Positions 1 through 46,785 of a stretch of DNA of 64,000 nucleotides are shown piece by piece. The notes below the pieces were generated by a model. The model was not told where the DNA came from, made no database searches, and was given only the letters and a program-made list of their open reading frames with translations. The position numbers and the translations under genes are program-made. The DNA is from a bacterium. Lineage in GTDB: Bacteria > Electryoneota > RPQS01. The DNA is taken from positions 173 through 64,172 of the forward strand of contig JAHIZR010000228.1 in NCBI GenBank assembly GCA_018814465.1, in the 5' to 3' direction. Position 1 is the stretch's first letter, and each line of letters begins with the position of its first letter.

Positions 1-482
1 ATGCCTGCCCGCAAACCACAACTGTGCATATCTATTGTCTGGATTGCGCCACACTGTAGCTGACCGATGCCTGCCCGCAAACCACAACTGCGTTATCGCA
101 TCGCCCTGCTGCCGATTGACTGTAGCTGACCGATGCCTGCCCGCAAACCACAACTTTACTGTCGGAATGTACGCACGGTCTTTTACTGTAGCTGACCGAT
201 GCCTGCCCGCAAACCACAACATGGCGGCTGGCATTAAGTGTCTCGTAAGTACTGTAGCTGACCGATGCCTGCCCGCAAACCACAACCCTGTCACTCACTT
301 GGATATAGGCTGTCAACTGTAGCTGACCGATGCCTGCCCGCAAACCACAACACCTGCACCCGCGACGATTGCCGCACCGAAACTGTAGCTGACCGATGCC
401 TGCCCGCAAACCACAACCGTTTCCTGCGGGTTATTAGCAGCACGGGACTGTAGCTGACCGATGCCTGCCCGCAAACCACAAC
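1..482. CRISPR. CRISPR array: 8 copies of the 36-bp repeat ACTGTAGCTGACCGATGCCTGCCCGCAAACCACAAC (first copy truncated at the window edge; full copies at 53, 119, 185, 251, 316, 382, 447) and 7 spacers of 29-30 bp. It continues upstream of the window. No cas genes in the window.
   Basis: Identical repeats and unique spacers read directly. The reverse complement GTTGTGGTTTGCGGGCAGGCATCGGTCAGCTACAGT has the GTTGT...GCTACA(A/G)T shape of type II-C repeats, and the 36/30 geometry also fits type VI-B. Confidence 0.93.
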
Positions 483-501: not shown

Positions 502-1620
502 TTAGATACCGCTCAGCGCTTCCTTGGGAAGCGGTAGATCGGCGCTGGCTTTCACTTCAAGACGCTTTAGCATTGCAAGGTTTCGAATCGTCAAAGCCAC
601 TTCAGGTTTTTGCAGCGGAGGACGACGATGCTCTTTCCATGCCATGACCTCCCTAAGGACATCCTGCTCTGTAGGAGTATTTTTTGTGCGCATCGCAAGC
701 TCGTTTCCAGCAAATAGAACAGTGGCTACAATTTCCGCTTGCTGAGTACGCAATCTAACAAAGAGATCGGCTACATTATCCAGAGTTTTTTCCCAATCCG
801 ACAAGTGTTTAGCATATTCCTCCTTAGCGACTTCGTACGATGGCCCCACGCGCACCGCAAGCATCTGGCCTAATCGATTTTCGACAATCAGGCGATGATT
901 CATCAGGCGACTCTCGAGTCCCTTCAAACCTTCAGCGAATGGGCCGTAGCTTCCGCGCCGGAATTCCAATCCCGTCGGGATCCCCTGTAGGGTCGCTACA
1001 TAGGCAATTTTCTGGAACATGACGCGCCCGACCGGCCAGTGATATGGCTCGTCCTCGATTCGCTTCAAGATATCGACTAAGGCGATCCATGCCGGATTGA
1101 TCCGTTCCTTATAAGTATCGGGACGCACAACGCCCGTTCCAGTGTCCAGGAAGCTCAGCTGCATCTCCTCGCAAGGAGTACCGTGCGGCGCATATAACTC
1201 AACGTCAATTTCGAGGCGTTTAAGATAGCGGTTAAGTATGGGACCGACAATTCGCCATTCCAATCCGCCAAGTCCGCTTCCGAGCGGCGGAACTGCGATG
1301 GATTCGATGCCCCACGTTTTGTAGTGTGTTAGCAGGAATTCGAGCCCTTTTTCAATGTCCTCTATTCGCGAGAGCGAACGCCAGTGATCCTTTGTTGGGA
1401 AATTCAGAATCCAGCGATCCGGACTTGACTTGAAGAGATAGGGCTCCCCCAACTTGACTTCTCCTCGTTTACAACGGGTAGTGTAATCGGCGAACATCGC
1501 GGGATAGCGATTCTTGAACTCGAGCGCAATGCCTTTGCCCATCACGCCCACACAGTTGACAGTGTTAACAAGTGTTTGAGCTTTGGAAGCGAAAAGGTCG
1601 CCTGACATTACTTTGAGCAT
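502..1620 (-). CDS. darG: DarG antitoxin (N-terminal macrodomain ADP-ribosyl hydrolase plus C-terminal DarT-binding domain)
   Basis: Macrodomain motif NTVNCVGVMGKGIALEFKNRYP. 372 aa. Lies immediately downstream of darT on the same strand. Confidence 0.85.
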   Translation of the reverse strand: MLKVMSGDLFASKAQTLVNTVNCVGVMGKGIALEFKNRYPAMFADYTTRCKRGEVKLGEPYLFKSSPDRWILNFPTKDHWRSLSRIEDIEKGLEFLLTHYKTWGIESIAVPPLGSGLGGLEWRIVGPILNRYLKRLEIDVELYAPHGTPCEEMQLSFLDTGTGVVRPDTYKERINPAWIALVDILKRIEDEPYHWPVGRVMFQKIAYVATLQGIPTGLEFRRGSYGPFAEGLKGLESRLMNHRLIVENRLGQMLAVRVGPSYEVAKEEYAKHLSDWEKTLDNVADLFVRLRTQQAEIVATVLFAGNELAMRTKNTPTEQDVLREVMAWKEHRRPPLQKPEVALTIRNLAMLKRLEVKASADLPLPKEALSGI

Positions 1621-1632
1621 GATCGAGTTTCT

Positions 1633-2235
1633 CTATTTGAAGAACATTCTTGCATTAACAGTGATTGCCAACGTTGGTGCAAGCGCAGCGAGTCTTCGCC
1701 GAGCAGAATCGCACGAAACGTAGGCTCCCACAATATAATTATCCGGAATGACATTTGGAACCAAAACCTCAGCACACATTCTCGATTTGTGCTCCCATTC
1801 GGCAACTTCGTTTCCCGGATGTTTCCATGATTCTGCGAAGGTATCATTGCCAACCAGCGACAACCCGCTCGATGAAGGGCGGAATCTCGCATATTCGCTG
1901 GAAGCGTTGCGATCCGTAAAAACGACGTTAGGAAGATCAACCACAGTTGGTGAAATCTTCAGTACACAGAGTTCATCGCCAGAGCAAATACCTCCGTGGA
2001 TATCCTTGTACATCATCGGATTCCGCGCGTTGAAGTAGAGATTCACATAATCATGCAAGCGCATGCCCCCTGGAACCACTATAATCTTTCGGCGATCTTG
2101 AATCTCTGGCATAGCAACAGATCTATGCCTGATCTTACAAACACCCGTATGTGAAAGAATGCCGTGCGACAAGATCGACGGTACGTTTTCAATCGCGGTG
2201 ATGTAGTGTAGCTCTGACAGCCGAGATCGTTCCAC
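1633..2235 (-). CDS. darT: DarT ssDNA thymidine ADP-ribosyltransferase toxin (DUF4433). Start codon appears to be GTG.
   Basis: N-terminal HYITxxxNxxSIL motif, VFTDR motif and C-terminal catalytic Glu region (CAEVLV) typical of DarT. About 200 aa. Paired with a macrodomain gene. Confidence 0.82.
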   Translation of the reverse strand: MERSRLSELHYITAIENVPSILSHGILSHTGVCKIRHRSVAMPEIQDRRKIIVVPGGMRLHDYVNLYFNARNPMMYKDIHGGICSGDELCVLKISPTVVDLPNVVFTDRNASSEYARFRPSSSGLSLVGNDTFAESWKHPGNEVAEWEHKSRMCAEVLVPNVIPDNYIVGAYVSCDSARRRLAALAPTLAITVNARMFFK

Positions 2236-2457
2236 AATTACAAGTTGTTAACAGTAGTATTTACATAGATTCATTATGCGAGCGAGTGCTGAAGGGTTCT
2301 TCTGGCGGTTGCAACAGGAGGAGGCTTCGGCGGGAGGAAAAGGAGGGTAAGTTGCCGAGGATTCCCCAAATACAACTTTATCTTACGGCTAACACGGGGT
2401 CAGCCCAATTGCGCAATCTTGACTGGTAGGTCGGACATTAGTATATTGAACACGTGT

Positions 2458-2862
2458 TCAACTTTTCGCGGGTAAGTCTTGAATAAACTTGATAATACCT
2501 CTTCCGGCTTCCACCATTGTTTTTCGGATCAGATTCAGCCGTTCATCATCGATTTCAACGTTTTCGGGGAGGTCGAGTTCGACAACCAACCTTCGCCGCT
2601 TGGTGAGCTTCGTCTCCGCCTGAGACTCGAGGAAGTAGTCTTCGGAGAGTCCTAATGCACTGGCTATAAGACGTAGCGTGCTTTCGTTTGGCTTCCTCGC
2701 ACCGCGTTGAATAGCTAGTAGAGTTTTATCGGATAGTCCTGTTTTTTCTGAAATACGCTTTTTCGCTCCCCATTGCGAAAGCGCAAACTCTAAATCGCTA
2801 TGTTTTTTAATATCCAGCATATAAGAAAAATTTACAGACTTAAATCTGTATTCTATTGACAA
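2458..2862 (-). CDS. XRE/Cro-CI family HTH transcriptional repressor (putative prophage repressor)
   Basis: HTH segment ISEKTGLSDKTLLAIQRG. Divergent from the Cro-like gene at 2990. Confidence 0.7.
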   Translation of the reverse strand: MSIEYRFKSVNFSYMLDIKKHSDLEFALSQWGAKKRISEKTGLSDKTLLAIQRGARKPNESTLRLIASALGLSEDYFLESQAETKLTKRRRLVVELDLPENVEIDDERLNLIRKTMVEAGRGIIKFIQDLPAKS

Positions 2863-2884
2863 AACAGATTTATTACCGTATATT
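2856..2884 (+). promoter_or_regulatory. Sigma70-like promoter (TTGACA-17 nt-TATATT) for the rightward early operon, overlapping ACAGAYTTA operator-like repeats (2834-2849 and 2864-2872)
   Basis: Consensus hexamers with 17-nt spacing read from the sequence. A near-palindrome ACAGACTTAAATCTGT lies adjacent. Confidence 0.45.
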
Positions 2885-2989
2885 GGTTTAGAATCAAATC
2901 AAAACCCCCGACACCTGAGAAATCTTGCCGGATTGCAGGCGACGGGGGCAAAGCTAACCAACAGGGGCTTTGCGCTCCCAGAGGTCTGA

Positions 2990-3310
2990 ATGAAATATAA
3001 AGTAAAGAATGGGCATTGTCAACCTAAGATTTCACTCGACTTAACGAGTAAACAGGTTTGCGAGCTGCTGGGGGTGACGGCCAATTGGCTGAAGAGTCAC
3101 GGTCACCTCTTCAAGCGGCGTCAGCAACCGGGCCGGGGGCGGAACGGGCTGGAGTGGCGTTATGATCGAGCGAATGTAGAATCGTATCGCCGTCACGGAT
3201 ATAGCGAGACCGAACTCGTCGAAAATCCGTATCACGGCAAATCCGTCGCGGAAATCGCGGCGATAGCTAAGGAGAGAGTCAGGCGCGGCCTTGTGAGCAC
3301 AAGCTCATAG
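2990..3310 (+). CDS. Cro/excisionase-like small HTH DNA-binding protein
   Basis: Segment QVCELLGVTANWLK looks like an HTH. It is the first gene of the rightward operon, opposite the repressor. Confidence 0.5.
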   Translation: MKYKVKNGHCQPKISLDLTSKQVCELLGVTANWLKSHGHLFKRRQQPGRGRNGLEWRYDRANVESYRRHGYSETELVENPYHGKSVAEIAAIAKERVRRGLVSTSS

Positions 3311-3364
3311 GGTTCGCGCTTTTTTGTTTTTGATCGAATCCACCAACCCAACGGAGAATGCCAG

Positions 3365-3592
3365 ATGATGATCGAAGAATTCGAACGGATCGAACATGAC
3401 GGAAAGATTTCCGGGGAGCAAGTCAAGGAACTGATCGCGGATGCAATTGAGGGCGCGTACGGCGAACGGCACGAAGTAACCGATCGCGAACTCATCGACT
3501 TTTTCAAATGGGCGACGGAGATGTTTGGACAAGGGGGATGCGAACTTAACGATTTCACGGCACGGTTTCTTATCGCAACTAAGCGCGTTTAA
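3365..3592 (+). CDS. Small acidic hypothetical protein (75 aa)
   Basis: ORF with an RBS-like GGAGAA upstream. Acidic composition. Confidence 0.5.
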   Translation: MMIEEFERIEHDGKISGEQVKELIADAIEGAYGERHEVTDRELIDFFKWATEMFGQGGCELNDFTARFLIATKRV

Positions 3593-3643
3593 GCGCCTTG
3601 CAGGTTTTTAAATAATCCTACCACCCCAAAAAGCGAGAATGCC

Positions 3644-3970
3644 ATGAAGCTTTACAGATTCGAACGAGGAGACAAGGTCCGCCGCCGCGCGGAGTGCGGC
3701 GCGGCGAATCATCCCGCAATCGTCGAAGTGCTCGAATGCGACGAGTTCTGCCTTCGGTTCATCGGCGCTGGGGTTGATCATTTCGGAATTTACGATCCGG
3801 CAAACTATGAACTGGTCGAAGGCGAATGCAGCTACTGCAATGGGATCGGGCACGTCCTCGGGCGCTATTACGGCGAGGGGGAATTCGAGCGGCACACCTG
3901 CCTCGTTTGTCACGGCACGGGCCGGCTCAATTACGATGCATTGAAGGAAGCGAAAGGGATCGCGGCATGA
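3644..3970 (+). CDS. Hypothetical protein with a DnaJ-type CxxCxGxG zinc-finger pair
   Basis: CSYCNGIGH...CLVCHGTGR. Confidence 0.55.
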   Translation: MKLYRFERGDKVRRRAECGAANHPAIVEVLECDEFCLRFIGAGVDHFGIYDPANYELVEGECSYCNGIGHVLGRYYGEGEFERHTCLVCHGTGRLNYDALKEAKGIAA

Positions 3971-4332
3971 TTCGCATACTATTAGTCGAGGACGAACAGT
4001 CCATCCGCGAACCTTTCGCCGAGTTACTCCGCGAGTACGACTACATGGTAGTCACTGCGAATAATGGCTTGACGGCGGCGCAGTATCTCGAAATCATCCC
4101 GATTGATCTGGTCATCACCGACTCGGATATGCCGCTCTGCGACGCGATCGAATTGACGCGCCGAATTCGCAGAGCGAGCGCGGCCCTGCCGGTGATCGCG
4201 ATCTCCGGTGAATGGCAGAACGAAAAGCCGATGATGGAGGCGGGCGCGAATGCGTTTCTGCTGAAGCCGGTCGAAATCGAAGTGCTGATTGGAATGATTG
4301 AAGAGCTCACGAAGAAAGGAGTGGCGGCATGA
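3967..4332 (+). CDS. Stand-alone CheY-like response-regulator receiver (REC) domain protein
   Basis: MIRILLVEDE acidic pocket, DLVITD phospho-acceptor Asp and a conserved Lys in LLKP. ATGA overlap with the upstream gene. The ORF-track alternative at 3826 overlaps its neighbour heavily. Confidence 0.7.
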   Translation: MIRILLVEDEQSIREPFAELLREYDYMVVTANNGLTAAQYLEIIPIDLVITDSDMPLCDAIELTRRIRRASAALPVIAISGEWQNEKPMMEAGANAFLLKPVEIEVLIGMIEELTKKGVAA

Positions 4333-4616
4333 CAAAGGTAGTTCATGTTGAGTTCGATGATTGCGGGGCGGGGTGCCCGTTTCTTGAAAGTACTGAAGGT
4401 GTCAGCGGAGATTTTAACGGATACAGATGTAGAAGGCTCTGGAAAGAAATTTACTTTTCTTCCGGAGTATTCCCTGATGACTGCCCACTGCCGGACAAAG
4501 AAGAACCTGAACTCCCGCCCTGCGAACTGTGTGGAGAGCATATCGCGGGTGGCGAATTTGAGGGTCTTTACATTTGCGGAGATTGCTATCAAGAATTAGA
4601 GTTGCCGACCGATTAA
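4329..4616 (+). CDS. Cys-rich hypothetical protein (putative zinc ribbon)
   Basis: Several CxxC pairs. ATGA overlap with the REC gene. Confidence 0.55.
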   Translation: MTKVVHVEFDDCGAGCPFLESTEGVSGDFNGYRCRRLWKEIYFSSGVFPDDCPLPDKEEPELPPCELCGEHIAGGEFEGLYICGDCYQELELPTD

Positions 4617-4628
4617 GGAGCAGACACG

Positions 4629-5447
4629 ATGATTAAGTACATCAATCAATCACTTTTAAACCTGCATGCCAAATGCGGGATTGCAGCGGAATACCGGGTA
4701 TCAGGGCTCATCATCCCCCCTGCCGCCGCCGCGCATCGCGGCACGGGCGTGCACCGCGCGGCGGAGGCGGACGCGCGGCGGATTCAGTTGAGCAGCGACC
4801 GCTTGACCATTCCGGAATTGCAGGACGCCGCCGCGACCGCGTTTTGTGAGAGCGTCGAGAAACACGGCGTGTATCTGAGCGCCGAGGACGCTCCGCAAGC
4901 GCGAGTTATTCTCGGGCAGGCGAAAGATGAAGCCGTGCGCGCTGCCGCGCTCTACGGCGAACGGGTTAGCCCGCGCATCGGCCAGCCCGTTCATATCGAG
5001 GAAGAGATCGTCGTGCAGATGGACGGATTGGATTATCCACTTGGCGGTACGCTCGATCTCGTTCATCTCGTCACCGCCGGTTACAAAATCACCGATTTAA
5101 AAACGACGGGCAAGGCGCCCGATCCGTCCGTCGCGACCCATTCGATTCAAGCGCCGATGTACGAGCTGCTGGCCGAGCGGGCCTTGGGGTTAAAGCCGTC
5201 GTTCGAGTTCGAGTTCATCAAGCTGCTGAAAACGAAATCCGAGACGATCACGATCCCGGCCGTCTTTACGCCGCAGACGCGCGCGAACCTGCTGCAACGG
5301 GCCAGTGTCTTCGAAGCGCATTTGCAATCCGGGGTGTTCACTCCGGCGGCGCCGGGATCGTGGTGGTGCTCAGAATCTTGGTGCGGCTATTACGGGATTT
5401 GCGCGCACGGCGCGAAGCAGTCCTGCCAGATCGCGATGAGCGCGTAG
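4629..5447 (+). CDS. PD-(D/E)xK exonuclease of the Cas4/RecB/AddB type with an Fe-S cysteine cluster
   Basis: DLVHL...ITDLKT nuclease motifs. One N-terminal Cys and a C-terminal CSESWCGYYGIC cluster. AAGGAG RBS. Confidence 0.7.
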   Translation: MIKYINQSLLNLHAKCGIAAEYRVSGLIIPPAAAAHRGTGVHRAAEADARRIQLSSDRLTIPELQDAAATAFCESVEKHGVYLSAEDAPQARVILGQAKDEAVRAAALYGERVSPRIGQPVHIEEEIVVQMDGLDYPLGGTLDLVHLVTAGYKITDLKTTGKAPDPSVATHSIQAPMYELLAERALGLKPSFEFEFIKLLKTKSETITIPAVFTPQTRANLLQRASVFEAHLQSGVFTPAAPGSWWCSESWCGYYGICAHGAKQSCQIAMSA

Positions 5448-5510
5448 GCTTACGGGTAATTTGAATTGAATCACTTTCACAATCATACTGACTTAAGGAG
5501 AGTACAGATC

Positions 5511-6794
5511 ATGACAGATCAGAACAGCAACGGTCGGGAATTTGAGAATATCCCGATTGTAACGCCGGAAGTCGTCGAGCGCATGTCGGGCGGCGTCAAC
5601 GGTGTCGGCGACATTGTCGCTTCCGGACGGACGATTGAGCAGATCCGGTCGAAATATCACACAGCGGTGCGCGTACAGGTCGCGCGCGATCTGGATTCAG
5701 TGAAGAAGCGCTGTTTGCAGGAGGCGAAGCACGGCGGCGATGAGTTCGGTTGGGCATGGCCTGTCGAGATTCCGGTGAAGGACGAGCGCGGCCAGATCAA
5801 GAAGGATGCGAACGGCAGATGGATCACGAAGGAAGAGATTATCGACGGCAAGAGCGTGCATCTCGCGATGGCCGCCGCGCGCAACTGGGGCAATTGCACG
5901 ACCGAGTTGTACGTGACTGCCGACCTGCCGGATCGCTGCGAACTCATGGGCGTGTTTGTGGATTTCGAGACGGGGTATACGAACATGCGGCCTTATACGA
6001 TTCGGAAGGCGTCGCGAGAACTATCCGAGAAGCAGAAGAAGAAGGCTTCGCAAATCGCGCGGCAGGAGGATATGACCATGCAGATCGGACTATCCAAGTG
6101 CATTCGCAACGTCGTGTTGGGCGCGTTGCCATCGTGGCTGACCGATTCGATGTACGAGGAATCGAAAAAGTACGCCAAGTCCCGCGTCGAGGCAAATCTC
6201 AAGGAATCCATCGAGCGCGCGGTCGCATTGTTCGCCAAATGGGACGTCAATCTGGACCGGCTGGAGATTTTCCTCGATAAACCGCGCTCGAACGATCCTA
6301 AAACGGATTGGAACGCCGACGATGTCTTGAAGTTGCGCGCGGCCTATCAGGCGATTAAAGACGGCGATATGACGATTAGCGAGGCGTTTCCAGCGGTGCC
6401 CGGAGCGCCGATGGCAAAACCCACCGCAACACAGACGACCGCGCCAGAGACGCGAACGCCGCCGCCGCAACCTACGCAACCTGCGGAACCTCCGCACCCC
6501 GCCGCACCGCCGACGCAGACGGCGGCGCAACCGCACGACCCAGACGGCAGCTTGACTGAGGAGCAGGGCGCGATGCTCGACGAGATCAACGCGCGCGCGG
6601 GCTTGATCAGCGCCGATCCGAAGATTCAGCGGGATACGATCTTTCTCTGGAGCGGGCAAACCTGCCGGGGCACGCTCGAACTGCGCAATAAGCCGAACTA
6701 TATCATTCCGACGCTTGATGCCGCGCGGGCCGATTGCGAGGCGCGCGGGCTTCAGCTCGCCGGACAAGGGCCGAAGAAAGGAAAACTTCTGTGA
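5511..6794 (+). CDS. Putative recombination / single-strand-annealing protein with a Pro-rich linker (function uncertain)
   Basis: Sits between the nuclease and the SMC-like ATPase. AAGGAG RBS before the ATG at 5511 (the ORF track starts at 5466). No family recognised. Confidence 0.45.
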   Translation: MTDQNSNGREFENIPIVTPEVVERMSGGVNGVGDIVASGRTIEQIRSKYHTAVRVQVARDLDSVKKRCLQEAKHGGDEFGWAWPVEIPVKDERGQIKKDANGRWITKEEIIDGKSVHLAMAAARNWGNCTTELYVTADLPDRCELMGVFVDFETGYTNMRPYTIRKASRELSEKQKKKASQIARQEDMTMQIGLSKCIRNVVLGALPSWLTDSMYEESKKYAKSRVEANLKESIERAVALFAKWDVNLDRLEIFLDKPRSNDPKTDWNADDVLKLRAAYQAIKDGDMTISEAFPAVPGAPMAKPTATQTTAPETRTPPPQPTQPAEPPHPAAPPTQTAAQPHDPDGSLTEEQGAMLDEINARAGLISADPKIQRDTIFLWSGQTCRGTLELRNKPNYIIPTLDAARADCEARGLQLAGQGPKKGKLL

Positions 6795-8077
6795 GGATTA
6801 TCAGACTGACGGCGGAGAACTTCAAGCGACTCCGCGCCGTCGAAATCACGCCTGACAATAACGTCGTTGTTGTCAGAGGGAAAAACGCGCAGGGCAAGTC
6901 CAGCGTCCTGGATGCGATTTGGGCTGCGCTCGGCGGCAAGCGCGCCGTGCCGGTGAAACCGATTCGCGAGGGCGAGGAGCGGAGCGAGATTACGCTCGAC
7001 CTCGGCGATTACATCGTGACGCGCATTTTCACGGAACGCGATAGCTATCTCACCGTGAAGAACGCGGACGGCGCGCAGTTGCGCAACCCACAAGCCTTGC
7101 TGGACGGCTTGATCGGCGCGATCTCCTTCGATCCGCTCGAATTCGCGCGCATGAAGCCTATCGAACAAGCGAAGCAGCTTGCGGAGATTACCGGCGTGGA
7201 CTTCGCGGATCTCAATCAGCGCAAGCAGGAGCTGTTCGCGCAGCGCACGGAAGTCAACCGCCGCGTCAAGCAGCTGCAAGGAATCGTTGCCGAATTGGAA
7301 GAACAGCACCCGCGCATCGCCAAAGCGAAGCCGGTGGAACCGGGCGCGATCAACGACCTCCTGGCCGAGTACGACCGGGTCAAGAACGAGCATACCGAGC
7401 GCAACCGGGACTTGGAGCGGCTCAATGCGCGCGAACTCGATCTGCGCGCCGTGGAGGATGAACGCGAGCGGCTGTTGAAACGCATCGCGGAGATCGATGA
7501 AAAGCTGGCGCAGGGCTGGAAAGCGCTGGCCGTCGACACCGACGCATTGCAGGAACGCATGAAGCAGTTGCCGGACTTGCCGGAGCTTCAGCAGCGCGTG
7601 CAGGAGGCGGTGAAGGCGAACACGCTGAACGAAACGATTTCGAACTATCGGAAGACGAACACCGAACTCGAAAGCGAGCAGGCGCGTTCGACGTCACTCA
7701 CGAAGCAAATCGAGACGCTCGACAAGGAGAAAGCGGAGTTGCTCAGCAAGGCCGATCTCCCAGTGAACGAACTCGCCTTCGACGAATCCGGCGTGTTTTA
7801 TCACGGGGTGCCGTTCGAGCAGTGCAGCAGCTCGGAGCAGCTGAAGGTCAGCACCGCTCTCGCCATTAGTTTTAATCCGAAACTGCGCGTCATTCGCATC
7901 ACGGACGGCTCGCTCCTGGACGAGGACAGTCTTGAGATCCTGCGCACGATTGCCGACAGTGAGGACTTCCAGATCTGGCTGGAGCGCGTCGATGATAGCG
8001 CGGGTGCGGTCGGCGTGCTGATCGAGGACGGCGAAATCAAGGCCATCAACCGCGAGCAGGAAACGGTCGCGGCTTAA
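6791..8077 (+). CDS. SMC/SbcC/RecN-like ABC ATPase with a coiled coil (phage DNA-repair or recombination ATPase)
   Basis: Walker A GKNAQGKSS, long coiled coil, signature-like SSSEQL and Walker B/D-loop RITDGSLLDED. GTG start at 6791 with an AAAGGA RBS. The alternative ATG at 6734 overlaps the upstream gene. Confidence 0.65.
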   Translation: MRIIRLTAENFKRLRAVEITPDNNVVVVRGKNAQGKSSVLDAIWAALGGKRAVPVKPIREGEERSEITLDLGDYIVTRIFTERDSYLTVKNADGAQLRNPQALLDGLIGAISFDPLEFARMKPIEQAKQLAEITGVDFADLNQRKQELFAQRTEVNRRVKQLQGIVAELEEQHPRIAKAKPVEPGAINDLLAEYDRVKNEHTERNRDLERLNARELDLRAVEDERERLLKRIAEIDEKLAQGWKALAVDTDALQERMKQLPDLPELQQRVQEAVKANTLNETISNYRKTNTELESEQARSTSLTKQIETLDKEKAELLSKADLPVNELAFDESGVFYHGVPFEQCSSSEQLKVSTALAISFNPKLRVIRITDGSLLDEDSLEILRTIADSEDFQIWLERVDDSAGAVGVLIEDGEIKAINREQETVAA

Positions 8078-38201: not shown

Positions 38202-41156
38202 TTACCGCATCAATACCATCTTCTTCGCATCAACGAAGTTGCCGGCTTCCATGCGGAAGATATAGAGTCCGGACGCGACATCGTGACCCGCACTATTCTT
38301 GCTATTCCACGTCACAGTATATGTTCCTGCGACATGAATGTTGTCAAGCAAAGTAGCAACTCGTTGTCCGAGCGTATTGTAAACATTGATTCGAACATGA
38401 GTATTTTCGGGGATATCGTAACGAATCTGCGTCGTCGGATTGAACGGGTTGGGGTAGTTCTGATAGAGGGCGAACCTATCAGGGATCGCGTTGTCCCAAT
38501 TCGACGGTCTTGATCCTTCGATTGTGCCTAACAAACCGATCAGATACTGTTCCCTCGTGAGTCCCTCTTCGAGGGATTCGATTCGCATCGATTGTGGAAT
38601 TCGATTCGCGAAAGACTCGTCAAGGCTACCATCATCCCAGTCAATGCTCCCCGCAGCCATTTGAACCAGATTCAGATCTGTCGCCACAAAAATAGAATCC
38701 TCAAACGCCAGACTGTCTTCCAGCAATTCAGCACAAAGATTAAGGGCGGATTCGAAAGCGTTTTTGTTCACGTAATAATTGACGAGAATTCGCTTACCGT
38801 GCAGTACGGCATCATAGGATGCACCATGTTGAGCGATCAACGCATTAATATAGCTCGGAATCCACTCTTCGCCTTCAATAAGATGCACGTCCGTAGTCAC
38901 GAGGCGGCTTGCCGCGCTCCAGATAGTTGACGGATCTTGCGCATGTTCGATCACGTAAAGATACAATGCCTGTGCTTCAGCAAACATCTCTTCATTTTCC
39001 AGATCGATAGCGTAAAGGAGCGTATCTACAATCAATGAGTCTTCATCGAGCGTATGTCCCGATCTGCCTGCTGTCGGTCCCGGCTGGATGCTCGATGTTC
39101 CACTTCCGCAGACACCATACGGAGTCGGAGATGGACTTGAAAAATCCCAATAGGAAGCATCAGAAGGTCTGAAATAGTTGATCTCAGGGGTCACGTTCCA
39201 ATACTGAATGATTGCTATAAACTGCGATACAAAAGGCGGGTAGTCTACCCAGCTCATGTATTTGATTTCGTGCGAATTATTCTGGATAAAATCGTTAGGT
39301 CGCTTGAGGAGCACAGGAAGAGGTCCCTTGCCTTGAAAAACCAGTAAGTAATCCGAGTCATCGCGGAACTCGTTAGCATAATTCTCTGAATTCTCCTGTC
39401 CAAACACTGGATTGCAGCCGGTCGCGGAATAAACTGTCGTCCTATAGGTCGAGGTTTCAGATGCGAGATCTTGGAATCGACAGCAGGTGAAATACGGATT
39501 GCAGGTTTCCGTATTCAGCATGACTCCATATTTGCTGGCTTCGCCTTCGAATAGACATTTGTCGAATGAACCTGATGTTTTTGAGATGTAAGTATTCGCA
39601 TAGCTACAATTACGAACCGTCGTGTTGTTGATTTTGACGTAACAGTTGCTGGTTTGTAGACCGGGCAGACCCTCGATATTCTCGATCAGACATTCGCTTA
39701 CATATTGCGTTTCCTTTGGGCTTCCAGTGAGTAAAAGTCCTCTCCCGTCGAATTGACAATAAACGATCGAAACCGGATGTGACAATGAGGTCGGAATAGG
39801 TTTATCGGTGTAAATGGCTGCCTTTGCACTTGCGTTTATGAACCTGGCTCCTTCAATCGAAACCTCTCCATTCACTTCCATGCAGTACCACTTTTCGCCT
39901 TCATCCATGGCGTCGAAGGTTACCATCTTCGAGGGAGTCCCATTCACGATCAAGGTTGCGCCTTGATCGACAATGAATGTGACATCCTGATCGAGTAAGA
40001 CTTCGACTCCCGCGTCGATTACAAGCTGTTCGCCCGGCCTGACTGCATAATTGCTTGTGATGTATATGGGTGAATGGCTGATTGTCCAATGATCGGATGG
40101 ATAAACCATCGGGTTGTCGAAGGAATGCCCGTTGACGCTATAGGATTCTATTTTCCAGCCATAAGATGGATCCAACGCGAAGCGGACAAGAATTAGGCGA
40201 CCACAGACTTCTCGAATATGAACGACCGGCTCAACCAGTTCTACTTCATTTCGCGTGGCTTGACTGAACGTATCAAACCGATCCCAAAGATAGAGTTTCT
40301 GCTGAAATCGGTTGAAGCCGATAACACCTAAGCCTTGGATGATGGCGGATTCATGTACGTTCATCCCATCGAAATCGTTGGACAACGCGAGTGCTTGAGA
40401 TTCGAGTGAAATCGCAGGATTTGAATTGCCGGCGATCAAATGATCAACGCGTTCGCTGCCTCCGTCACTAACATACAGATTAATGCGGTTATTGCTGTCC
40501 ACAAAGCCCGAGATATCGCTCAACCACTGATAACCGTCGTCGAATACTCCGGGATGTCCATAGGATGCGAGAATACTACCATTCAAATCTGTGCGAAAGA
40601 TTGACTTGGCATTCTCATCAACGATGAATAGACTGCCATTCTCATAGTGAATCCCGATTGGTCTTGTGATCAAGGGATTTGTGATGGCACTCTCGTATCG
40701 AAATTTGCCCGTGATTCCATCGAATTTGTAAATACCGATGGTTGCGCCACCGCGGAATACAACCGCGACACGGTCATCCTGCGGACTGAAGTAGGTTTGA
40801 TTCTGAATCTTGCACAGGGCGCGGGGATAGTTAAGGTTTTCCGGAATCAGACAAGAGCGCGCAACATCTTCGCGCTCTAAGGGTGCGTCGTGTTTTATGC
40901 GAAAGCATGTAAACAATGTCCAACTGTCTTCCAATACAACAACACGATAGTCGGCGGGCGAGAGCTTTAAGACTTCGATGTCCACCGGATGCATGATACC
41001 GAGATCCGTGGAATCAGTGATTTCGAATAGCCATTCAGACGAAATCTCGCTCAAGCCCGGAATACCGAACATGTTTTCCTCACGATCCAGCGTAATCGTT
41101 GCTTGAGCTTGGATCGTAAGCAGCACTAGCAAGGTCAATGTGATATATCTCTTCAT
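38202..41156 (-). CDS. Large secreted protein with a T9SS (Por) C-terminal sorting domain
   Basis: C-terminal segment YPNPFNPTTQIRYDIP...GLYIFRMEAGNFVDAKKMVLMR is a canonical T9SS CTD. N-terminal signal peptide. Confidence 0.8.
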   Translation of the reverse strand: MKRYITLTLLVLLTIQAQATITLDREENMFGIPGLSEISSEWLFEITDSTDLGIMHPVDIEVLKLSPADYRVVVLEDSWTLFTCFRIKHDAPLEREDVARSCLIPENLNYPRALCKIQNQTYFSPQDDRVAVVFRGGATIGIYKFDGITGKFRYESAITNPLITRPIGIHYENGSLFIVDENAKSIFRTDLNGSILASYGHPGVFDDGYQWLSDISGFVDSNNRINLYVSDGGSERVDHLIAGNSNPAISLESQALALSNDFDGMNVHESAIIQGLGVIGFNRFQQKLYLWDRFDTFSQATRNEVELVEPVVHIREVCGRLILVRFALDPSYGWKIESYSVNGHSFDNPMVYPSDHWTISHSPIYITSNYAVRPGEQLVIDAGVEVLLDQDVTFIVDQGATLIVNGTPSKMVTFDAMDEGEKWYCMEVNGEVSIEGARFINASAKAAIYTDKPIPTSLSHPVSIVYCQFDGRGLLLTGSPKETQYVSECLIENIEGLPGLQTSNCYVKINNTTVRNCSYANTYISKTSGSFDKCLFEGEASKYGVMLNTETCNPYFTCCRFQDLASETSTYRTTVYSATGCNPVFGQENSENYANEFRDDSDYLLVFQGKGPLPVLLKRPNDFIQNNSHEIKYMSWVDYPPFVSQFIAIIQYWNVTPEINYFRPSDASYWDFSSPSPTPYGVCGSGTSSIQPGPTAGRSGHTLDEDSLIVDTLLYAIDLENEEMFAEAQALYLYVIEHAQDPSTIWSAASRLVTTDVHLIEGEEWIPSYINALIAQHGASYDAVLHGKRILVNYYVNKNAFESALNLCAELLEDSLAFEDSIFVATDLNLVQMAAGSIDWDDGSLDESFANRIPQSMRIESLEEGLTREQYLIGLLGTIEGSRPSNWDNAIPDRFALYQNYPNPFNPTTQIRYDIPENTHVRINVYNTLGQRVATLLDNIHVAGTYTVTWNSKNSAGHDVASGLYIFRMEAGNFVDAKKMVLMR

Positions 41157-41171
41157 GGGTTTCCCCTATTG

Positions 41172-42122
41172 TTAGTCGTCTTGTTGTTCCTGTTCGGCAA
41201 GCAATTCTCTCAGGTGTTCGATTTTCCCTTGAAATCTTATTGACATTTCATAGTTTCTTTCACCATTCGGATCATACTTAGCAAGTAAGGGGCTGCCATG
41301 ACTAACAGATAGTACTCCATAATCTGTCCAAAGTTTTTCCAGATATTCCATGGCTTTGTCGTAACGGCGCAGGTGCAATGCGGATTCATAGGCAAAATAG
41401 AATCCACCAGGATCTGTCAATCCTTCGCCAATTAGGGAGTCGGCTAAACTGATAGCGTGATCGTAGTAAGATGTCTTGAATGAAACAAAAATCTCGCTTG
41501 AGATGATTCTTGCTTGATCGAAGCTATTGCATGGTTCGAGAATTTCCCAAGCAGGCGAGATTGCCGACTCTTTCGACTGGCCATCTCCAGTAAAGCGAAC
41601 GCGGAATGATATTGTATGTCCGGCAAGTGTCTCGGGAATACGAGCTACATACTGCTTTGAATTTCGTTGTGTTAATTCCGAGATTCTCGAACCCTCTTCT
41701 TGCAATTTATCAAACAGCCTATTCAGTGAACTTAATCCGTACGTGATGTTCATTTGGCTGAAGAGACTCTCATCTGGTACAAAGGTCGTGCCTTGCACGT
41801 AATCCTTTGCGAATTCCAGCATATAATCCTCCGGCCATTCAGAATCCAAAGGCTCTAAGGATTGATCATATTCATTTCTTACAACCAGAAGCAAGCAAGA
41901 TCCTGCAAGAATGCCGGGACGTTCATATTCATCTGCCTCAAGAGTGTAAGTGCTGGCGTCGTCGCATGCACTGCCATAAACAAGTGCGCGCTGCGTGATA
42001 TTTAGTGGATCGATTGCGTACGTACTTGCCGTGTATAGAGATAGGCAAAGACAAATCGCAACAAGTGATCTATAGAAGTAATAAGGCAATTCATACCTCC
42101 TGTTTCGGTCTGTTGATTGCAA
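41172..42122 (-). CDS. Secreted hypothetical protein
   Basis: Hydrophobic N-terminus. Confidence 0.55.
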   Translation of the reverse strand: MQSTDRNRRYELPYYFYRSLVAICLCLSLYTASTYAIDPLNITQRALVYGSACDDASTYTLEADEYERPGILAGSCLLLVVRNEYDQSLEPLDSEWPEDYMLEFAKDYVQGTTFVPDESLFSQMNITYGLSSLNRLFDKLQEEGSRISELTQRNSKQYVARIPETLAGHTISFRVRFTGDGQSKESAISPAWEILEPCNSFDQARIISSEIFVSFKTSYYDHAISLADSLIGEGLTDPGGFYFAYESALHLRRYDKAMEYLEKLWTDYGVLSVSHGSPLLAKYDPNGERNYEMSIRFQGKIEHLRELLAEQEQQDD

Positions 42123-42127
42123 AATAG

Positions 42128-44119
42128 CTACTGCCTATACCTAATGGAATCAGCACATTGTACACCTAAGGTCGGATCATTGATATATCCCCATTTATTG
42201 TCAGAATGATTGGGATCATCACTCCACACATCAATCCATACATTCCAAGCAGATTCACATGTCAGTCCATCATTACAATTATCATGTCGAACATATCCTA
42301 CACATTCAGGTCGACAAGGACTATAGTGTCGAAGCTTCTCATTCATCATCACACAACCGTACAGATTCCCAGAATATTGTGGACTGTGATCCGGGGCATT
42401 TATTGTATGACCCATTTCATGTGCAAGTGTGCGACGCAACACAATTTCACAAACACTCTCGAATAGTAACCGATAATCTGAATCTGGTCCCCAGCCTCCT
42501 ACACCGGTATCTGGATCATGGCGCCACCAGTCCTCAGCAATTTCATTAAAGATTCTATTCCTGTCTATTAGCACGTGTGCGTTCCCACATATGCCATAGC
42601 CTCTTAAATGGTTGACTGTACCATAGTAGTTCCAACCATAATTTGCCTCAATCGGGAAATTCCTTACTCTAAGTGCTACTTGGTCGGAGGACCTCACCCA
42701 ATCATCACCATTATGTTGATCATCTACGTGGGTTGAATCAGCAGGAGAAGGAAATGCGAGAGGTGGTCGTGGAATTGTAAAAGAATTTGCTTCCCAGTGC
42801 CCCGGCCCTGTTTCTGGTTGTTCCCATCTCCCTTGATAGGTGTCAATACATTCATATCTTAAGTTGCCGTAAGGATCTGGAGCTGCTCTTCTTATTCGTT
42901 CAGTAAGTACTTCGTTTGTATCACCATAGGTAACAACCAGACTGCAAGCTTCCACTCTTGCTGAATCTGTTCCAGGATATTTCATGAACTTCATCATCTC
43001 CTGTAATCTGGGCAAGAAACCTTCAATACTAGCATCATGAAAGAGACTATCTTGATCTATTACAAGGATATTCCGTCTTGTTTTAATCGTGTCTAGATCA
43101 AGCCTTAAATGTGAACCATCCAAGCATCTAAATCCACGATACTCCTCCCATAGTGTTAAGCCGTCGCTATCCGGATCGGCATCACTTTTCCAATCTTGGT
43201 AACCTTGGGGTATTTTAATAGAGGTACCGCCGCCATTCGGGACGGTCGCCGGGACTCCCCGCACTCTATTGTCAAATACTTGAACTGCACTGATGCTTCC
43301 CTCTGCCGCATAATCGAGCAGTCGAACGTATACTTCGTATGGTTCATCCGCTTCTAAAGTCACAATCAATGAACAAGAAGCAGTATGGTAACGATACAGT
43401 GGCGGAAGGGCTGCCCCTTCAAGAATCATGTCCGCCTTCTTCTCGGATTGGTCATCCGGTACCGGAGCATTCATCGCTATTCCTTCATAGCAGGAACTTC
43501 CAAGCGTAACCATTACCGACATCGGATAGGTGGCCCTTAGCTCGTAGCATAAAGTACTGTCATACATTGGCATATAGCGAAGGCTGTCAACCTCTGTTGT
43601 GTCCGGATTATTGCCACAAGGTCTCAGAGTCAGAGAGATAGGGTCATAAGGAAAACCAACCCAATCGTCCGGTTCTTTTGCAATATGCTTACAGTCTCCG
43701 ACCTGCTCCCAGATACAGTACCGTGAATGCACAGAGCAATGCAGTACCGACCATCCGCCCTCCCAATTCGTTTGACAATGATAGTAATAATGGGAACCAC
43801 CGGGCGGAGTATCACAGAGTCCGTATGCGCAACCTTCACCCGGTTCAAGAAATATTCCATTCGATGCAGAATTACAGGATGGTCGATCACTGCAGTTACA
43901 ACCGGTTGTTGAACACCCCCATGAAAATCCGCCGCCTAAAGAATAATATATCTTTCGAATACGGATTGTCTCGCCGTTTCCAATATCGTAATCTTCGAAG
44001 ACAATTCCATCAATGGTCCGATACAATCTCGGTGGCCATTGAGCGAGAGCATCGCTACAGACTAATATCAGGCATAAAGCTGGTATTATCAAGAGCAATT
44101 TGGAACGAATTTTATCCAT
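42128..44119 (-). CDS. Secreted zinc metalloprotease (metzincin-like HEMGHxxxxxDH)
   Basis: Signal peptide MDKIRSKLLLIIPALCLILV. LAHEMGHTINAPDH near the C-terminus. Confidence 0.6.
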   Translation of the reverse strand: MDKIRSKLLLIIPALCLILVCSDALAQWPPRLYRTIDGIVFEDYDIGNGETIRIRKIYYSLGGGFSWGCSTTGCNCSDRPSCNSASNGIFLEPGEGCAYGLCDTPPGGSHYYYHCQTNWEGGWSVLHCSVHSRYCIWEQVGDCKHIAKEPDDWVGFPYDPISLTLRPCGNNPDTTEVDSLRYMPMYDSTLCYELRATYPMSVMVTLGSSCYEGIAMNAPVPDDQSEKKADMILEGAALPPLYRYHTASCSLIVTLEADEPYEVYVRLLDYAAEGSISAVQVFDNRVRGVPATVPNGGGTSIKIPQGYQDWKSDADPDSDGLTLWEEYRGFRCLDGSHLRLDLDTIKTRRNILVIDQDSLFHDASIEGFLPRLQEMMKFMKYPGTDSARVEACSLVVTYGDTNEVLTERIRRAAPDPYGNLRYECIDTYQGRWEQPETGPGHWEANSFTIPRPPLAFPSPADSTHVDDQHNGDDWVRSSDQVALRVRNFPIEANYGWNYYGTVNHLRGYGICGNAHVLIDRNRIFNEIAEDWWRHDPDTGVGGWGPDSDYRLLFESVCEIVLRRTLAHEMGHTINAPDHSPQYSGNLYGCVMMNEKLRHYSPCRPECVGYVRHDNCNDGLTCESAWNVWIDVWSDDPNHSDNKWGYINDPTLGVQCADSIRYRQ

Positions 44120-44523
44120 TTATCCCTCGTAAATATATGGTTTTGCTGTCAGAAAGCACGTATACTCAATGGAATGCAACGAAAAAACGAACGCCTGCCT
44201 AATCGAAAACCGATAGGAAGTCGTTCGCTTCATATTGTCACCCGTAAGTTGTTATACTGTGGTTGGTTTATAATAGTTAGCAATATCTAATTGGATAGTC
44301 AAGGGTCAGGCATCTCTTTTATAAATCTTTCAGATGTGTAAAAAATAGCTCGGATCGTGCAATATTGATAAATGCTGTCCTATTATATTATTAGATAAAT
44401 ATATACTTACACATTGAAGGCAAATCTATTACTGCGTTCAAAAGGGTACAACACTGCAAAAAAGAGAAAGGGCGAAACAGTTTGCTAACCATTTCGCCTC
44501 TCTATATTCCTCGGACGAACTGT

Positions 44524-46785
44524 CTATTTTACGAGCACCATCTTATTGCTCAGTTTCACATTCGCGGCTTGCAGGGTGTTGAAATACACTCCAGACGGCA
44601 GCGCGGAGGCCTTGAAAAGATGCGAATGATGCCCTGCGTTCAACCTCCCGAAGTCAATCGTGTATACACTCTGTCCGAGCATATTGAAGACCGCCAGCGA
44701 TGTTTCAGACGCCAGCGGCAGATCAAACGCAATCGTTGTGGAAGGATTGAAGGGATTGGGATAGCAAGGATAAAGCGTGACGCTCTGTGGAATCTCAGCG
44801 GTATTCCGTCTTGGAATGTCCAACGCCTGAGTGCAATCGTAGATACCGAAATAGCATCCATCCGCAACATATGCGTAAACACCGGTAACCGCTACATGCT
44901 CTGACCAGCCAGGAGTTTCATACCAACCAGCTTCCCTCGGATTTGTGGGATCAGTGATGTCAACTACGCTTAAGTCTCCGTTCGTAGCCAAGAATAGGAA
45001 ATCATCCCGCAACGTAATATCGTAAACATATCCGAAGAAACCGCCAATATCAATTTCAACTGGATTTGCTGGATCACTGATATTTAGAACGCATAACGAA
45101 TTGGAACCTGCTCCTACGAAAGCATAATCATTAACGGCGGCAACGCATTCAACCTCATCATCCCATACAAAGGATCCAACCTCAGCAATCTGCGTTGGCT
45201 CACTAATATCGAGTATGCGTAATCCCGAGCTTCCATCGGCAACTAATGCAAGATTACCTGAAACCGCGATGTCTTTTGCATTCCCTGGAGTATTGAAGAA
45301 ACCTCTTGTCATGGGGTGCTCCGGATCACTGATTTCAATGACAAAGAGACCGAATTCATCGTCTGCAACATATGCAAAGTCTCCCTCGACAATCACATCA
45401 TAGGATAGACCGGGAGTATCCACTTGACTGACGGGTTCAGGCTCGCTCGGATCTGAAATATCAAGAATCCTTAATCCCCGGTCATAGTCTGCCACATATA
45501 GGTATTGTCCTAATATGTCAACTGCACATGCAGTTCCCGGCGTATTGTATGATGCCGCCTCGACCGGATTTGTCCGATCCGAAATATCCGCTATCAAAAT
45601 TCCCTGTGTGTTGTTTGTTATATATGCGTAATCGCCATCCACGGCAACGCATTCGAGGCGTGCTCCCCTTGAAATCGCTCCCACTTCATCGGGCTGTGTT
45701 GGATTAGAAATATCCACAATTCGCAGACCATCATACACAGATTCAGCATACACATGGTTTTCCGCGATTCCGATACGAACAATCGAGCTGGGCATATCAA
45801 TTGAATTCGCTTCAACAGGCTGTCCAGGATTAGTGACATCTATGGTTCGCAGTTCATCGAACCCCTCAGCCAAATATGCATAGTTGCCTGACAGCGCAAG
45901 ATCCTGCACCCAGCCAGGGCTTGATATGAAACCCGATTCAATCGGCACAGACGGATTGGTAACGTTTACAATTCGCAGTCCGCTTGAACCTGCAGCAACA
46001 TAAGCATAATTGCCCTGCACTTTTACATCCCATACACTGCTTGGGGGTAAATAGAATCCAACTTCATCCGGTTCGTAAGGATTGCTTGCATCAAATATCC
46101 TTAATCCAACATCCCAATCAATCACATAGGCATAACTCCCGGAAACATCGATTGCGTCGGCATATCCTCCAATAGCAGTAACCGAAGCGATTGATGGATG
46201 AAACGGATCGCTGATATCTACTACAACAAGTCCATCATAACCTATGCAATAAGCATAGTTTCCGGCTATTGCTACATCCAGTAGAAGCAGGTATTCATTC
46301 TCATCAGTCCGGCCTACCAATACGGGGTGCCACGGATCAGATACATCGACTATCACTAAGTCATCATAAGAGTCGGCAATATAGACAAATGACCCTGAAA
46401 GCACGACGCTATTAGCATCTTCGGTATCAACATAACTCAATTCAACTGGTTGATTAGGAATTGCAACACTTACAATCCTAAGTCCCGAATATCCCGTAGC
46501 CACATAAATCAAAGTATCTACTCCCACAACATCAGCCTGACGATCCCAATAATCATCCAGCAATCCGATCTGCCGGATATGCAGGCTGTCCTGTGCAAAC
46601 ACTGATGTCGTTAGAGTGAAAATACTAACCGCAATTCGAAGAAAACTTCTCACATTTGATTCTTTAGGCTTTAGAAGTTTATTTAACGAGGCTGCTATTT
46701 CTATGTAAGGACTCTTCATATGATTCCGTCGATTCATTGATCCCAATTCATATTTGTTTAAACAAAGCGAGCCCTTCCTATTCAC
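44524..46785 (-). CDS. LVIVD-repeat beta-propeller protein with a T9SS C-terminal sorting domain
   Basis: Repeated YAYVAD...GLRI.DISDP units. C-terminal YPNPFNPSTTIAFDLP...KMVLVK. Confidence 0.75.
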   Translation of the reverse strand: MNRKGSLCLNKYELGSMNRRNHMKSPYIEIAASLNKLLKPKESNVRSFLRIAVSIFTLTTSVFAQDSLHIRQIGLLDDYWDRQADVVGVDTLIYVATGYSGLRIVSVAIPNQPVELSYVDTEDANSVVLSGSFVYIADSYDDLVIVDVSDPWHPVLVGRTDENEYLLLLDVAIAGNYAYCIGYDGLVVVDISDPFHPSIASVTAIGGYADAIDVSGSYAYVIDWDVGLRIFDASNPYEPDEVGFYLPPSSVWDVKVQGNYAYVAAGSSGLRIVNVTNPSVPIESGFISSPGWVQDLALSGNYAYLAEGFDELRTIDVTNPGQPVEANSIDMPSSIVRIGIAENHVYAESVYDGLRIVDISNPTQPDEVGAISRGARLECVAVDGDYAYITNNTQGILIADISDRTNPVEAASYNTPGTACAVDILGQYLYVADYDRGLRILDISDPSEPEPVSQVDTPGLSYDVIVEGDFAYVADDEFGLFVIEISDPEHPMTRGFFNTPGNAKDIAVSGNLALVADGSSGLRILDISEPTQIAEVGSFVWDDEVECVAAVNDYAFVGAGSNSLCVLNISDPANPVEIDIGGFFGYVYDITLRDDFLFLATNGDLSVVDITDPTNPREAGWYETPGWSEHVAVTGVYAYVADGCYFGIYDCTQALDIPRRNTAEIPQSVTLYPCYPNPFNPSTTIAFDLPLASETSLAVFNMLGQSVYTIDFGRLNAGHHSHLFKASALPSGVYFNTLQAANVKLSNKMVLVK

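Follow-up and report, generated by a model that had tools for sequence, protein, structure and literature searches.

The 64,000-nucleotide stretch analyzed here (positions 173 to 64,172 of contig JAHIZR010000228.1, assembly GCA_018814465.1; hereafter the window) contains a block of tailed phage genes, taken as a prophage of an uncultured Calditrichota-like bacterium, near the left end of which four small rightwards-transcribed genes fill positions 3365–4616 between a cro-like gene and a recombination module. We refer to their products, in order, as p75, p108, REC and p95 (Table 1). The third of these is a response-regulator receiver domain that stands alone, and both its sequence and its modelled structure indicate that REC is a genuine orphan single-domain response regulator with a complete predicted phosphorylation site, encoded by a temperate tailed phage. 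Stand-alone receivers carried by phages are rare but have already been reported, and REC is a further example. Its position is interesting, and it has so far no support from conservation.

The assignment of REC draws on its sequence, its active site and its predicted fold. It matches the Pfam Response_reg profile (PF00072) with E=4.4e-22 and 78.8 bits (cut-off 30.2) over profile positions 1–110 of 111, and its best phmmer match in the PDB is the PmrA receiver (E=9e-15). Residues E8, D9, D52, S80, F97 and K100-P101 align with D12, D13, D57, T87, Y106 and K109-P110 of CheY, the phospho-acceptor D52 lying within the motif DLVITD; the PDB alignments agree with this assignment. Gly81 is at the T+1 position, where a glycine leaves the active site of CheY-type receivers accessible to small-molecule phosphodonors. 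An AlphaFold (AF2) model based on a three-sequence alignment has a mean predicted local distance difference test (pLDDT) value of 91.1 and a predicted template modelling (TM) score (pTM) of 0.86, and shows the full (beta-alpha)5 arrangement of five strands alternating with five helices. Foldseek aligns this model with the receivers of PmrA, KdpE, Spo0F, VicR and PorX at TM scores of 0.88–0.91 and root-mean-square deviations of 1.3–2.3 Å; the receiver of PorX, a regulator of the type IX secretion system (T9SS), is no closer than the others (TM 0.89, 28% identity). The protein stops after helix 5 (residue 121), and it therefore has no output domain. An earlier, sequence-only reading of the window had proposed four small open reading frames (ORFs) in this interval, among them a complete receiver domain, placed between cro and the recombination genes. 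The ORF coordinates bear out the content and positions, the whole-profile match, the full set of phosphorylation residues and the modelled fold agree with a complete domain, and the location is as described, in a phage module flanked by a pair of helix-turn-helix (HTH) genes on one side and nuclease, ATPase and RusA genes on the other.

There is no histidine kinase, histidine phosphotransfer (Hpt) protein or second receiver in the 64-kb window; when a hybrid kinase (HisKA+HATPase+REC) was compared by phmmer with every window ORF of at least 50 aa, REC was the only match. Within the window REC is an orphan and is not part of a paired two-component system. The guanine-plus-cytosine (GC) content at third codon positions (GC3) of the gene is 0.70, as compared with 0.73–0.80 for phage genes and 0.37–0.66 for the flanking host genes, and this phage-like codon composition argues against very recent capture.

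REC reaches none of the NCBIfam equivalog cut-offs (CpdR, RssB, CheY, PhoP and others are far under threshold), and we therefore regard it as a generic orphan receiver. Several more specific assignments were considered and rejected. One is a chemotaxis CheY in the strict sense, for which the highest-scoring model reaches 44 bits (cut-off 200) and there are no che genes in the window, such that the term CheY-like holds for the fold only. Another is an adaptor regulator of the CpdR or RssB type, with scores of 56 bits (cut-off 180) and 53 bits (cut-off 329) respectively. The OmpR/PhoB receivers (PmrA, KdpE, PhoP) are the best sequence and structure matches (31–34% identity, TM ~0.9) and REC shares the acidic VEDE motif with PhoB, but it is not a transcription factor of this family, as it ends at residue 121 without a C-terminal winged-helix output domain; p95, encoded by the ORF downstream, has no Trans_reg_C match. 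Nor is REC simply a truncated OmpR-type regulator, since the DDY motif and the helix-5 dimer-interface arginines of the family are missing: the OmpR/PhoB beta5-alpha5 signature, DDY...KPF, reads NAF...KPV in REC, and its alpha5 is free of Arg. A last candidate is the cREC group of jumbo phages, to which a BFVD entry gives a TM score of 0.61 as against ~0.9 for classical receivers. The cREC proteins are divergent, never classical receivers, and are linked to NAD/ADP-ribose enzymes (PMC7824862). The DarTG genes near REC, which bear on a link of this type, are on the opposite strand and beyond the regulatory region.

The four ORFs are tightly packed and have good translation signals. The mechanically called ORF that holds REC begins at 3826, but the receiver gene itself begins at the ATG at 3967, because this codon overlaps the p108 stop codon (ATGA) and is preceded by an AAGGGA Shine-Dalgarno motif; identical copies in two public assemblies are annotated with the same 121-aa product. 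Shine-Dalgarno-like motifs lie 6–10 nt upstream of each of the four ORFs, the ATGA overlap at p108/REC recurs at REC/p95, and 12 nt separate the end of p95 from the start of the nuclease gene. The two overlaps couple p108, REC and p95 translationally and suggest that they are produced together. The NCBI annotation of two metagenome-assembled genomes (MAGs) omits p95; by our own estimate the chance probability of a stop-free 95-codon frame exactly filling the 296-nt gap is ~0.01–0.02. Chance ORFs are unlikely given the tight packing, the translation signals and the purifying selection on p75 (see below). An Rfam scan gave no match within the cluster. We also observe short repeated sequences at the gene junctions. 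One, GAAAGGrrTsGCGGCATGA, is found at both ATGA overlaps (3952–3970 and 4314–4332), and through it p108 and REC share a C-terminal ending ...KG(I/V)AA. Another, GAGAATGCCA, provides the ribosome-site context of p75 (3354–3367) and p108 (3633–3646), and also precedes an unrelated gene in contig L092 (described below). These repeats may represent cassette boundary sequences.

The three companion proteins are less readily classified, and p75 and p95 have no homology to any known family. The likeness of p75 to Ocr or anti-CRISPR (Acr) proteins raised by the sequence-only reading extends to size and mild acidity. The net charge is −8, or −0.107 per residue (pI, the isoelectric point, 4.6), and p75 has no Pfam, PHROG or NCBIfam match and no PDB sequence match. 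T7 Ocr carries about −0.24 per residue, and by this measure the acidity of p75 appears to fall well short of Ocr-type DNA mimics. The description of p108 as a DnaJ-type protein holds for the motif and not for family membership: it has two CxxCxGxG motifs where DnaJ has four, forming two zinc centres, and it scores below the cut-offs of both Pfam DnaJ_CXXCXGXG (PF00684; 20.8 bits, cut-off 32.7) and NCBIfam anti-TRAP (18.3 bits, cut-off 65), such that we do not accept it as a DnaJ central cysteine-rich domain other than at the motif level. It matches phrog_6060 (E=7e-6) in the zinc-finger part only, its N-terminal 59 residues match no family, and a single-sequence AlphaFold model is unusable (pLDDT 37). 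Two motifs should nonetheless be enough for one DnaJ-type zinc centre, and the small protein inhibitor anti-TRAP (RtpA) likewise has two.

The ribbon signature of p95 is C65xxC68-x14-C83xxC86, with four more cysteines N-terminal to it; the two CxxC knuckles of a zinc ribbon are generally about 10–20 residues apart. Its zinc-ribbon profile matches are marginal (DZR_2, 15.2 bits with a cut-off of 27; S14 type Z, E=0.24; DksA-like). No product of the phage is more acidic than p95 (pI 4.1, −0.158 net charge per residue), p75 being the next, and the GC3 of p95, 0.44, differs strongly from that of the phage genes, which suggests a separate origin. Both p108 and p95 probably bind other proteins, as small domains stabilised by zinc.

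Relatives of these genes are few. At 90% identity each of the four ORFs forms a cluster by itself, and more distant homologues were sought by a word-indexed search of 5.8 billion clusters and, exhaustively, with HMMER among 1.84 billion representatives. The former returned no relatives of p108 or p95, and in the latter p95 has no homologue except itself. For REC the word-indexed search yielded only two relatives, both of them distant stand-alone receivers (44% and 37% identity); the surroundings of one look cellular, whereas the other is on a contig of only 1 kb, which is not long enough to assess its context. The gene of the 37%-identity relative (P0003, 127 aa) and the end of a gene encoding a 506-aa protein overlap on a cellular-looking contig (L004, both genes within 2232–4126); the 506-aa product has no Pfam match and might be an unrecognised kinase or partner. 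All matches of REC in a tblastn search of 50,697 phage records are below 40% identity and most looked dubious. Two that were inspected were not counted, one being host flank beyond an integrase and the other being an unverified, unannotated record. An IMG/VR match (L003) is irrelevant, as it corresponds to the receiver part of a hybrid kinase of 699 aa that lies in host-like flank.

One homologue of p75 is present among the 1.84 billion representatives (P0008; 81% identity), and the ratio of nonsynonymous to synonymous substitutions (dN/dS) between the two is 0.17, by which p75 is judged to be a real, conserved gene under purifying selection. The homologue is encoded on a 585-nt contig (L092) together with the end of a cro homologue and a terminator block that is 100% identical to that in the window, and the gene that follows it, in the same GAGAATGCCA ribosome-site context, differs from p108. 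Around distant relatives of the nuclease (28–30% identity, L006–L011) the gene order is retained, namely HTH gene, small ORFs, nuclease, phrog_3657-like gene; none of the small ORFs is related to those of the window and there is no receiver among them. Because relatives carry other small ORFs here, the slot between the HTH gene and the nuclease is a variable accessory region, and p75, p108 and p95 are lineage-specific accessory proteins within it. Searches of IMG/VR and JGI metagenomes with the nuclease, the ATPase, the HerA-like protein, p75 and the terminator sequence as anchors gave no closer relatives. A conserved homologue in a related phage has thus been found for p75 and, in this thinly sampled lineage, not so far for REC, p108 or p95.

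The region upstream of the cluster has the organization of a temperate switch. The intergenic region between the cI-like and cro-like genes contains two near-consensus divergent promoters, one rightward (Table 1) and one a mirror leftward promoter-like site at 3022–2994. The terminator overlapping the 3′ end of cro has a predicted folding free energy of −32.1 kcal/mol (z=−5.0), and none of 200 shuffled sequences is as stable. A 56-nt block (3255–3332; ~150–215 in L092) containing the last 14 cro codons and the terminator hairpin is identical in L092; the C-terminal 64 aa of the cro-like protein are kept there with a dN/dS of 0.14. Because the rest of cro has a dS of ~1, the identity of this block points to constraint at the RNA or DNA level, as for a terminator or regulatory element. 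With a strong terminator in front of it, the cluster resembles the delayed-early genes of lambda, which lie behind tR1 and need read-through or antitermination. We infer from the terminator position that the cluster would be expressed on infection or induction and not in a quiescent lysogen. The earlier description of the cluster as part of an early operon therefore stands as to its rightward placement but not as to simple early expression, as the terminator parts cro from the cluster. We also note that two independent short public contigs, one from a MAG (L001, 2786 nt) and one from Logan (L002, 1983 nt), match the window at 100% identity and both start exactly at 2894. This shared start within the cI/cro intergenic region suggests an assembly-graph branch, which could be a prophage junction or a mosaic boundary.

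The closest phage precedents for REC are stand-alone CheY-like proteins of the lytic Alteromonas phages V22 (gp30, 149 aa) and A5 (gp11, 147 aa), which belong to a tail-fibre (host recognition) module, are classed as class II auxiliary genes and are reported without functional data (PMC7289586, PMC10579305). Like REC, V22 gp30 is a phage-encoded single receiver with no output domain, and the two structures align with a TM score of 0.86; however, they share only 16% identity, and gp30 is in the tail-fibre module of a lytic phage whereas REC lies behind a temperate-type regulatory switch and, unlike the V22 and A5 receivers, is coupled to two Cys-rich ORFs. Neither of these receivers was listed by the tblastn search of the phage records. 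Several more phage receivers (125–153 aa, from uncultured Caudovirales) are present in BFVD, and a literature text search of 8 million papers on phage-encoded response regulators gave only one match, which was unrelated. Cellular single-domain regulators (CheY, Spo0F, CpdR, DivK, MrrA and phosphate-sink CheYs) resemble REC in fold, active-site residues, size and action through protein contacts, but REC is phage-encoded, has no che, spo or cell-cycle neighbours and no cognate kinase nearby. Such regulators are reported to work as hubs, sinks or kinase inhibitors (PMC5964349, PMC9430884). A further parallel is PIT4, which Pseudomonas phage LSL4 produces early and which interferes with host two-component systems through binding to several histidine-kinase domains of the host (PMC10714779); the likeness to REC is one of mechanism class only, with no known sequence relationship.

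Our preferred reading, to which we assign a probability of about 0.35, is that REC is a phosphorylatable orphan receiver of lytic or early development that is phosphorylated by the host and competes with a host regulator for its kinase. The rightward operon would be read through on infection or induction, and the REC so made would receive its phosphoryl group either from acetyl phosphate or from a histidine kinase of the host. Because it lacks an effector domain, REC would act through protein contacts only, most probably by competing with a host response regulator for the kinase of that regulator, as a phosphate sink or by kinase titration, with the result that a host signalling pathway would be rewired during phage development. 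The role of phosphate sink or decoy suggested by the sequence-only reading is plausible, given that REC is an orphan receiver and that the window encodes no kinase. Several points weigh against this. No homologue of REC, p108 or p95 was found in any phage-like context, although absence of homologues is weak evidence because the phage lineage is very thinly sampled, and the only related fragment (L092) carries a different gene after p75. Lastly, no prophage ends or integrase were found, and the phage GC content of 0.60 is unlike that of both flanks, which puts the host assignment at some risk.

An alternative, which we consider possible if somewhat doubtful, is that REC is a sensor serving the phage, in which phosphorylation by host kinases or acetyl phosphate would report the state of the host and REC~P would bind phage partners, possibly p108 and p95, to bias the choice between lysis and lysogeny or the timing of phage development. 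REC sits just past the cro-like gene, where lambda keeps cII, the ATGA coupling suggests co-production of the three proteins, and with no kinase in the phage the input must be host-derived; the logic is analogous to that of phage VP882, whose VqmA eavesdrops on quorum sensing (PMC10274711). However, no DNA-binding or other output function can be recognised in any of the three candidate partners, the GC3 of p95 suggests that it came separately, and the p108-REC-p95 module is not kept in the one relative. An elaborated form, in which p108-REC-p95 would constitute a phage phospho-switch, with REC reading a host kinase or acetyl phosphate and REC~P engaging the zinc-finger partners to set lysis-lysogeny or to disarm a host pathway, is correspondingly speculative and we think it improbable. 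It is also unlikely that REC and its neighbours are passenger genes acquired by illegitimate recombination, with no selected role. Their singleton status in ~5.8 billion clusters, their absence from distant relatives that keep the HTH-nuclease synteny, and the repeated junction sequences, which could reflect cassette shuffling, would fit such an origin, but the catalytic residues of REC are all intact and its fold is confidently predicted, the phage-like GC3 of REC and p108 implies long residence, and the translation signals are tidy, with p75 under purifying selection.

Two further alternatives invoke anti-defence and proteolysis. The cluster could be an anti-defence island, with p75, p95 or both inhibiting CRISPR-Cas, restriction or DarT, and REC either incidental or a cREC-like counter to nucleotide or ADP-ribose defence. 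That p75 and p95 are the two most acidic phage products, small, lineage-specific and in a variable slot, that the phage adjoins both DarTG and a CRISPR array, and that cREC provides a precedent in jumbo phages (PMC7824862) are all in its favour; yet neither protein matches a known family, their acidity is well below that of DNA mimics, REC is classical (TM ~0.9 to two-component receivers versus 0.61 to cREC) and the phage is not matched by any spacer of the neighbouring array, and we consider this improbable as well. A phosphorylation-independent adaptor or anti-adaptor resembling CpdR or RssB, which deliver substrates to ClpXP, could redirect host proteolysis, and these two are among the better NCBIfam matches of REC (56 and 53 bits), with the RssB N-terminal domain among its structural matches. 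These scores are far under the cut-offs (180 and 329) and dozens of other receiver families do as well, and the intact site argues that phosphorylation matters; such a function seems very unlikely.

Phages are known to listen in on the quorum sensing of their hosts and to block host kinases by means of small proteins. To our knowledge, what a phage-encoded receiver domain does has yet to be demonstrated in any instance, and REC, behind a temperate-phage switch, is a good candidate for asking whether phages tap host phosphorelays for lifestyle choice or host silencing. If the phospho-switch were true, two-component phosphotransfer would be a direct input into phage development, for which the literature searched holds no phage demonstration. 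The practical value is limited, given an uncultured host, a phage lineage that has hardly been sampled and a gene that is so far a singleton.

Table 1. Coordinates (window numbering), strand and supporting evidence for features of the small-gene cluster and its surroundings.
Feature	Coordinates	Strand	Evidence and remarks
CRISPR array	1-482		Cut by window edge; 36-nt repeat ACTGTAGCTGACCGATGCCTGCCCGCAAACCACAAC, 7 full copies and one cut
Macro-domain DarG-like protein	502-1620	-	Paired with DarT
DarT	1633-2235	-	Pfam E=2e-39
cI-like HTH_3 (XRE-family) regulator	2458-2862	-	Pfam HTH_3 E=1e-5; PHROG transcriptional regulator/repressor families; GC3 0.43
Sigma-70-like rightward promoter, TTGACA-17-TATATT	2856-2884	+	Consensus scan, 11/12 matches; pattern match only
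cro-like small basic HTH protein, 106 aa	2990-3310	+	Weak Pfam HTH_17 match (E=0.0035); first gene of rightward block
Intrinsic terminator, long GC-rich hairpin and U-run	3281-3332	+	Overlaps cro 3′ end, upstream of cluster
p75	3365-3592	+	ORF and Shine-Dalgarno motif; 75 aa, moderately acidic (pI 4.6), matches no known family
p108	3644-3970	+	108 aa; N-terminal half uncharacterised, two CxxCxGxG motifs (C62/C65, C86/C89)
REC	3967-4332	+	121-aa stand-alone response-regulator receiver domain without output domain
p95	4329-4616	+	95 aa, very acidic (pI 4.1), 8 Cys, C-terminal CxxC-x14-CxxC signature
PD-(D/E)XK (Cas4/RecB-like) nuclease, C-terminal Cys cluster	4629-5447	+	Pfam PDDEXK_1 E=3.5e-16; phrog_69 exonuclease
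phrog_3657 protein	5466-6794	+	PHROG match E=5.5e-33
SMC/Rad50-like ATPase (phrog_1499)	~6788-8077	+	PHROG E=1.2e-89; NCBIfam Rad50/SMC/RecF N-terminal matches

The phage block extends from 2990 to 38121, is one-directional and has a GC content of ~0.60. The nuclease gene is the first of the recombination module and forms the downstream boundary of the small-gene cluster, and the block also includes RusA, a muramidase, a HerA-like ATPase, an HNH-like ORF, a capsid protein and tail proteins. A large terminase is probable by position and size, with no family match. The 810-aa ORF at 22629–25061 matches Phage_capsid_4 only at residues 491–806, and its N-terminal 490 residues may be a fused scaffold or protease. 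No integrase, no att-type direct or inverted repeat and no prophage ends were found. The GC content of the phage (~0.60, GC3 0.73–0.80) compared with 0.45–0.53 in both flanks is a larger difference than is usual for a resident prophage, which may be compatible with recent arrival or with an assembly chimera.

To the left, DarT and DarG lie immediately beside the cI-like gene and in the same orientation, a layout that resembles lambda cI-rexAB; DarTG may be either prophage cargo or a host defence island, and the cI-like gene may belong either to the phage or to the DarTG island; exact look-ups of the cI-like and DarG proteins gave no record. The CRISPR array is separated by 20 nt from the DarG stop codon and has spacers of 29–30 nt, none of which matches the phage or the window at ≤6 mismatches. 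The right flank (38.2–64 kb, GC 0.45–0.53) contains cellular genes, including those for T9SS-sorted proteins, tRNA-Pro, an alcohol dehydrogenase, a permease, an aminotransferase, PhzF and a CTP synthase that is 76% identical to a homologue in a Calditrichaeota MAG. Three large secreted proteins encoded on the minus strand (38202–46785) adjoin the end of the phage; two have T9SS C-terminal sorting domains, and one also has 12 LVIVD repeats.

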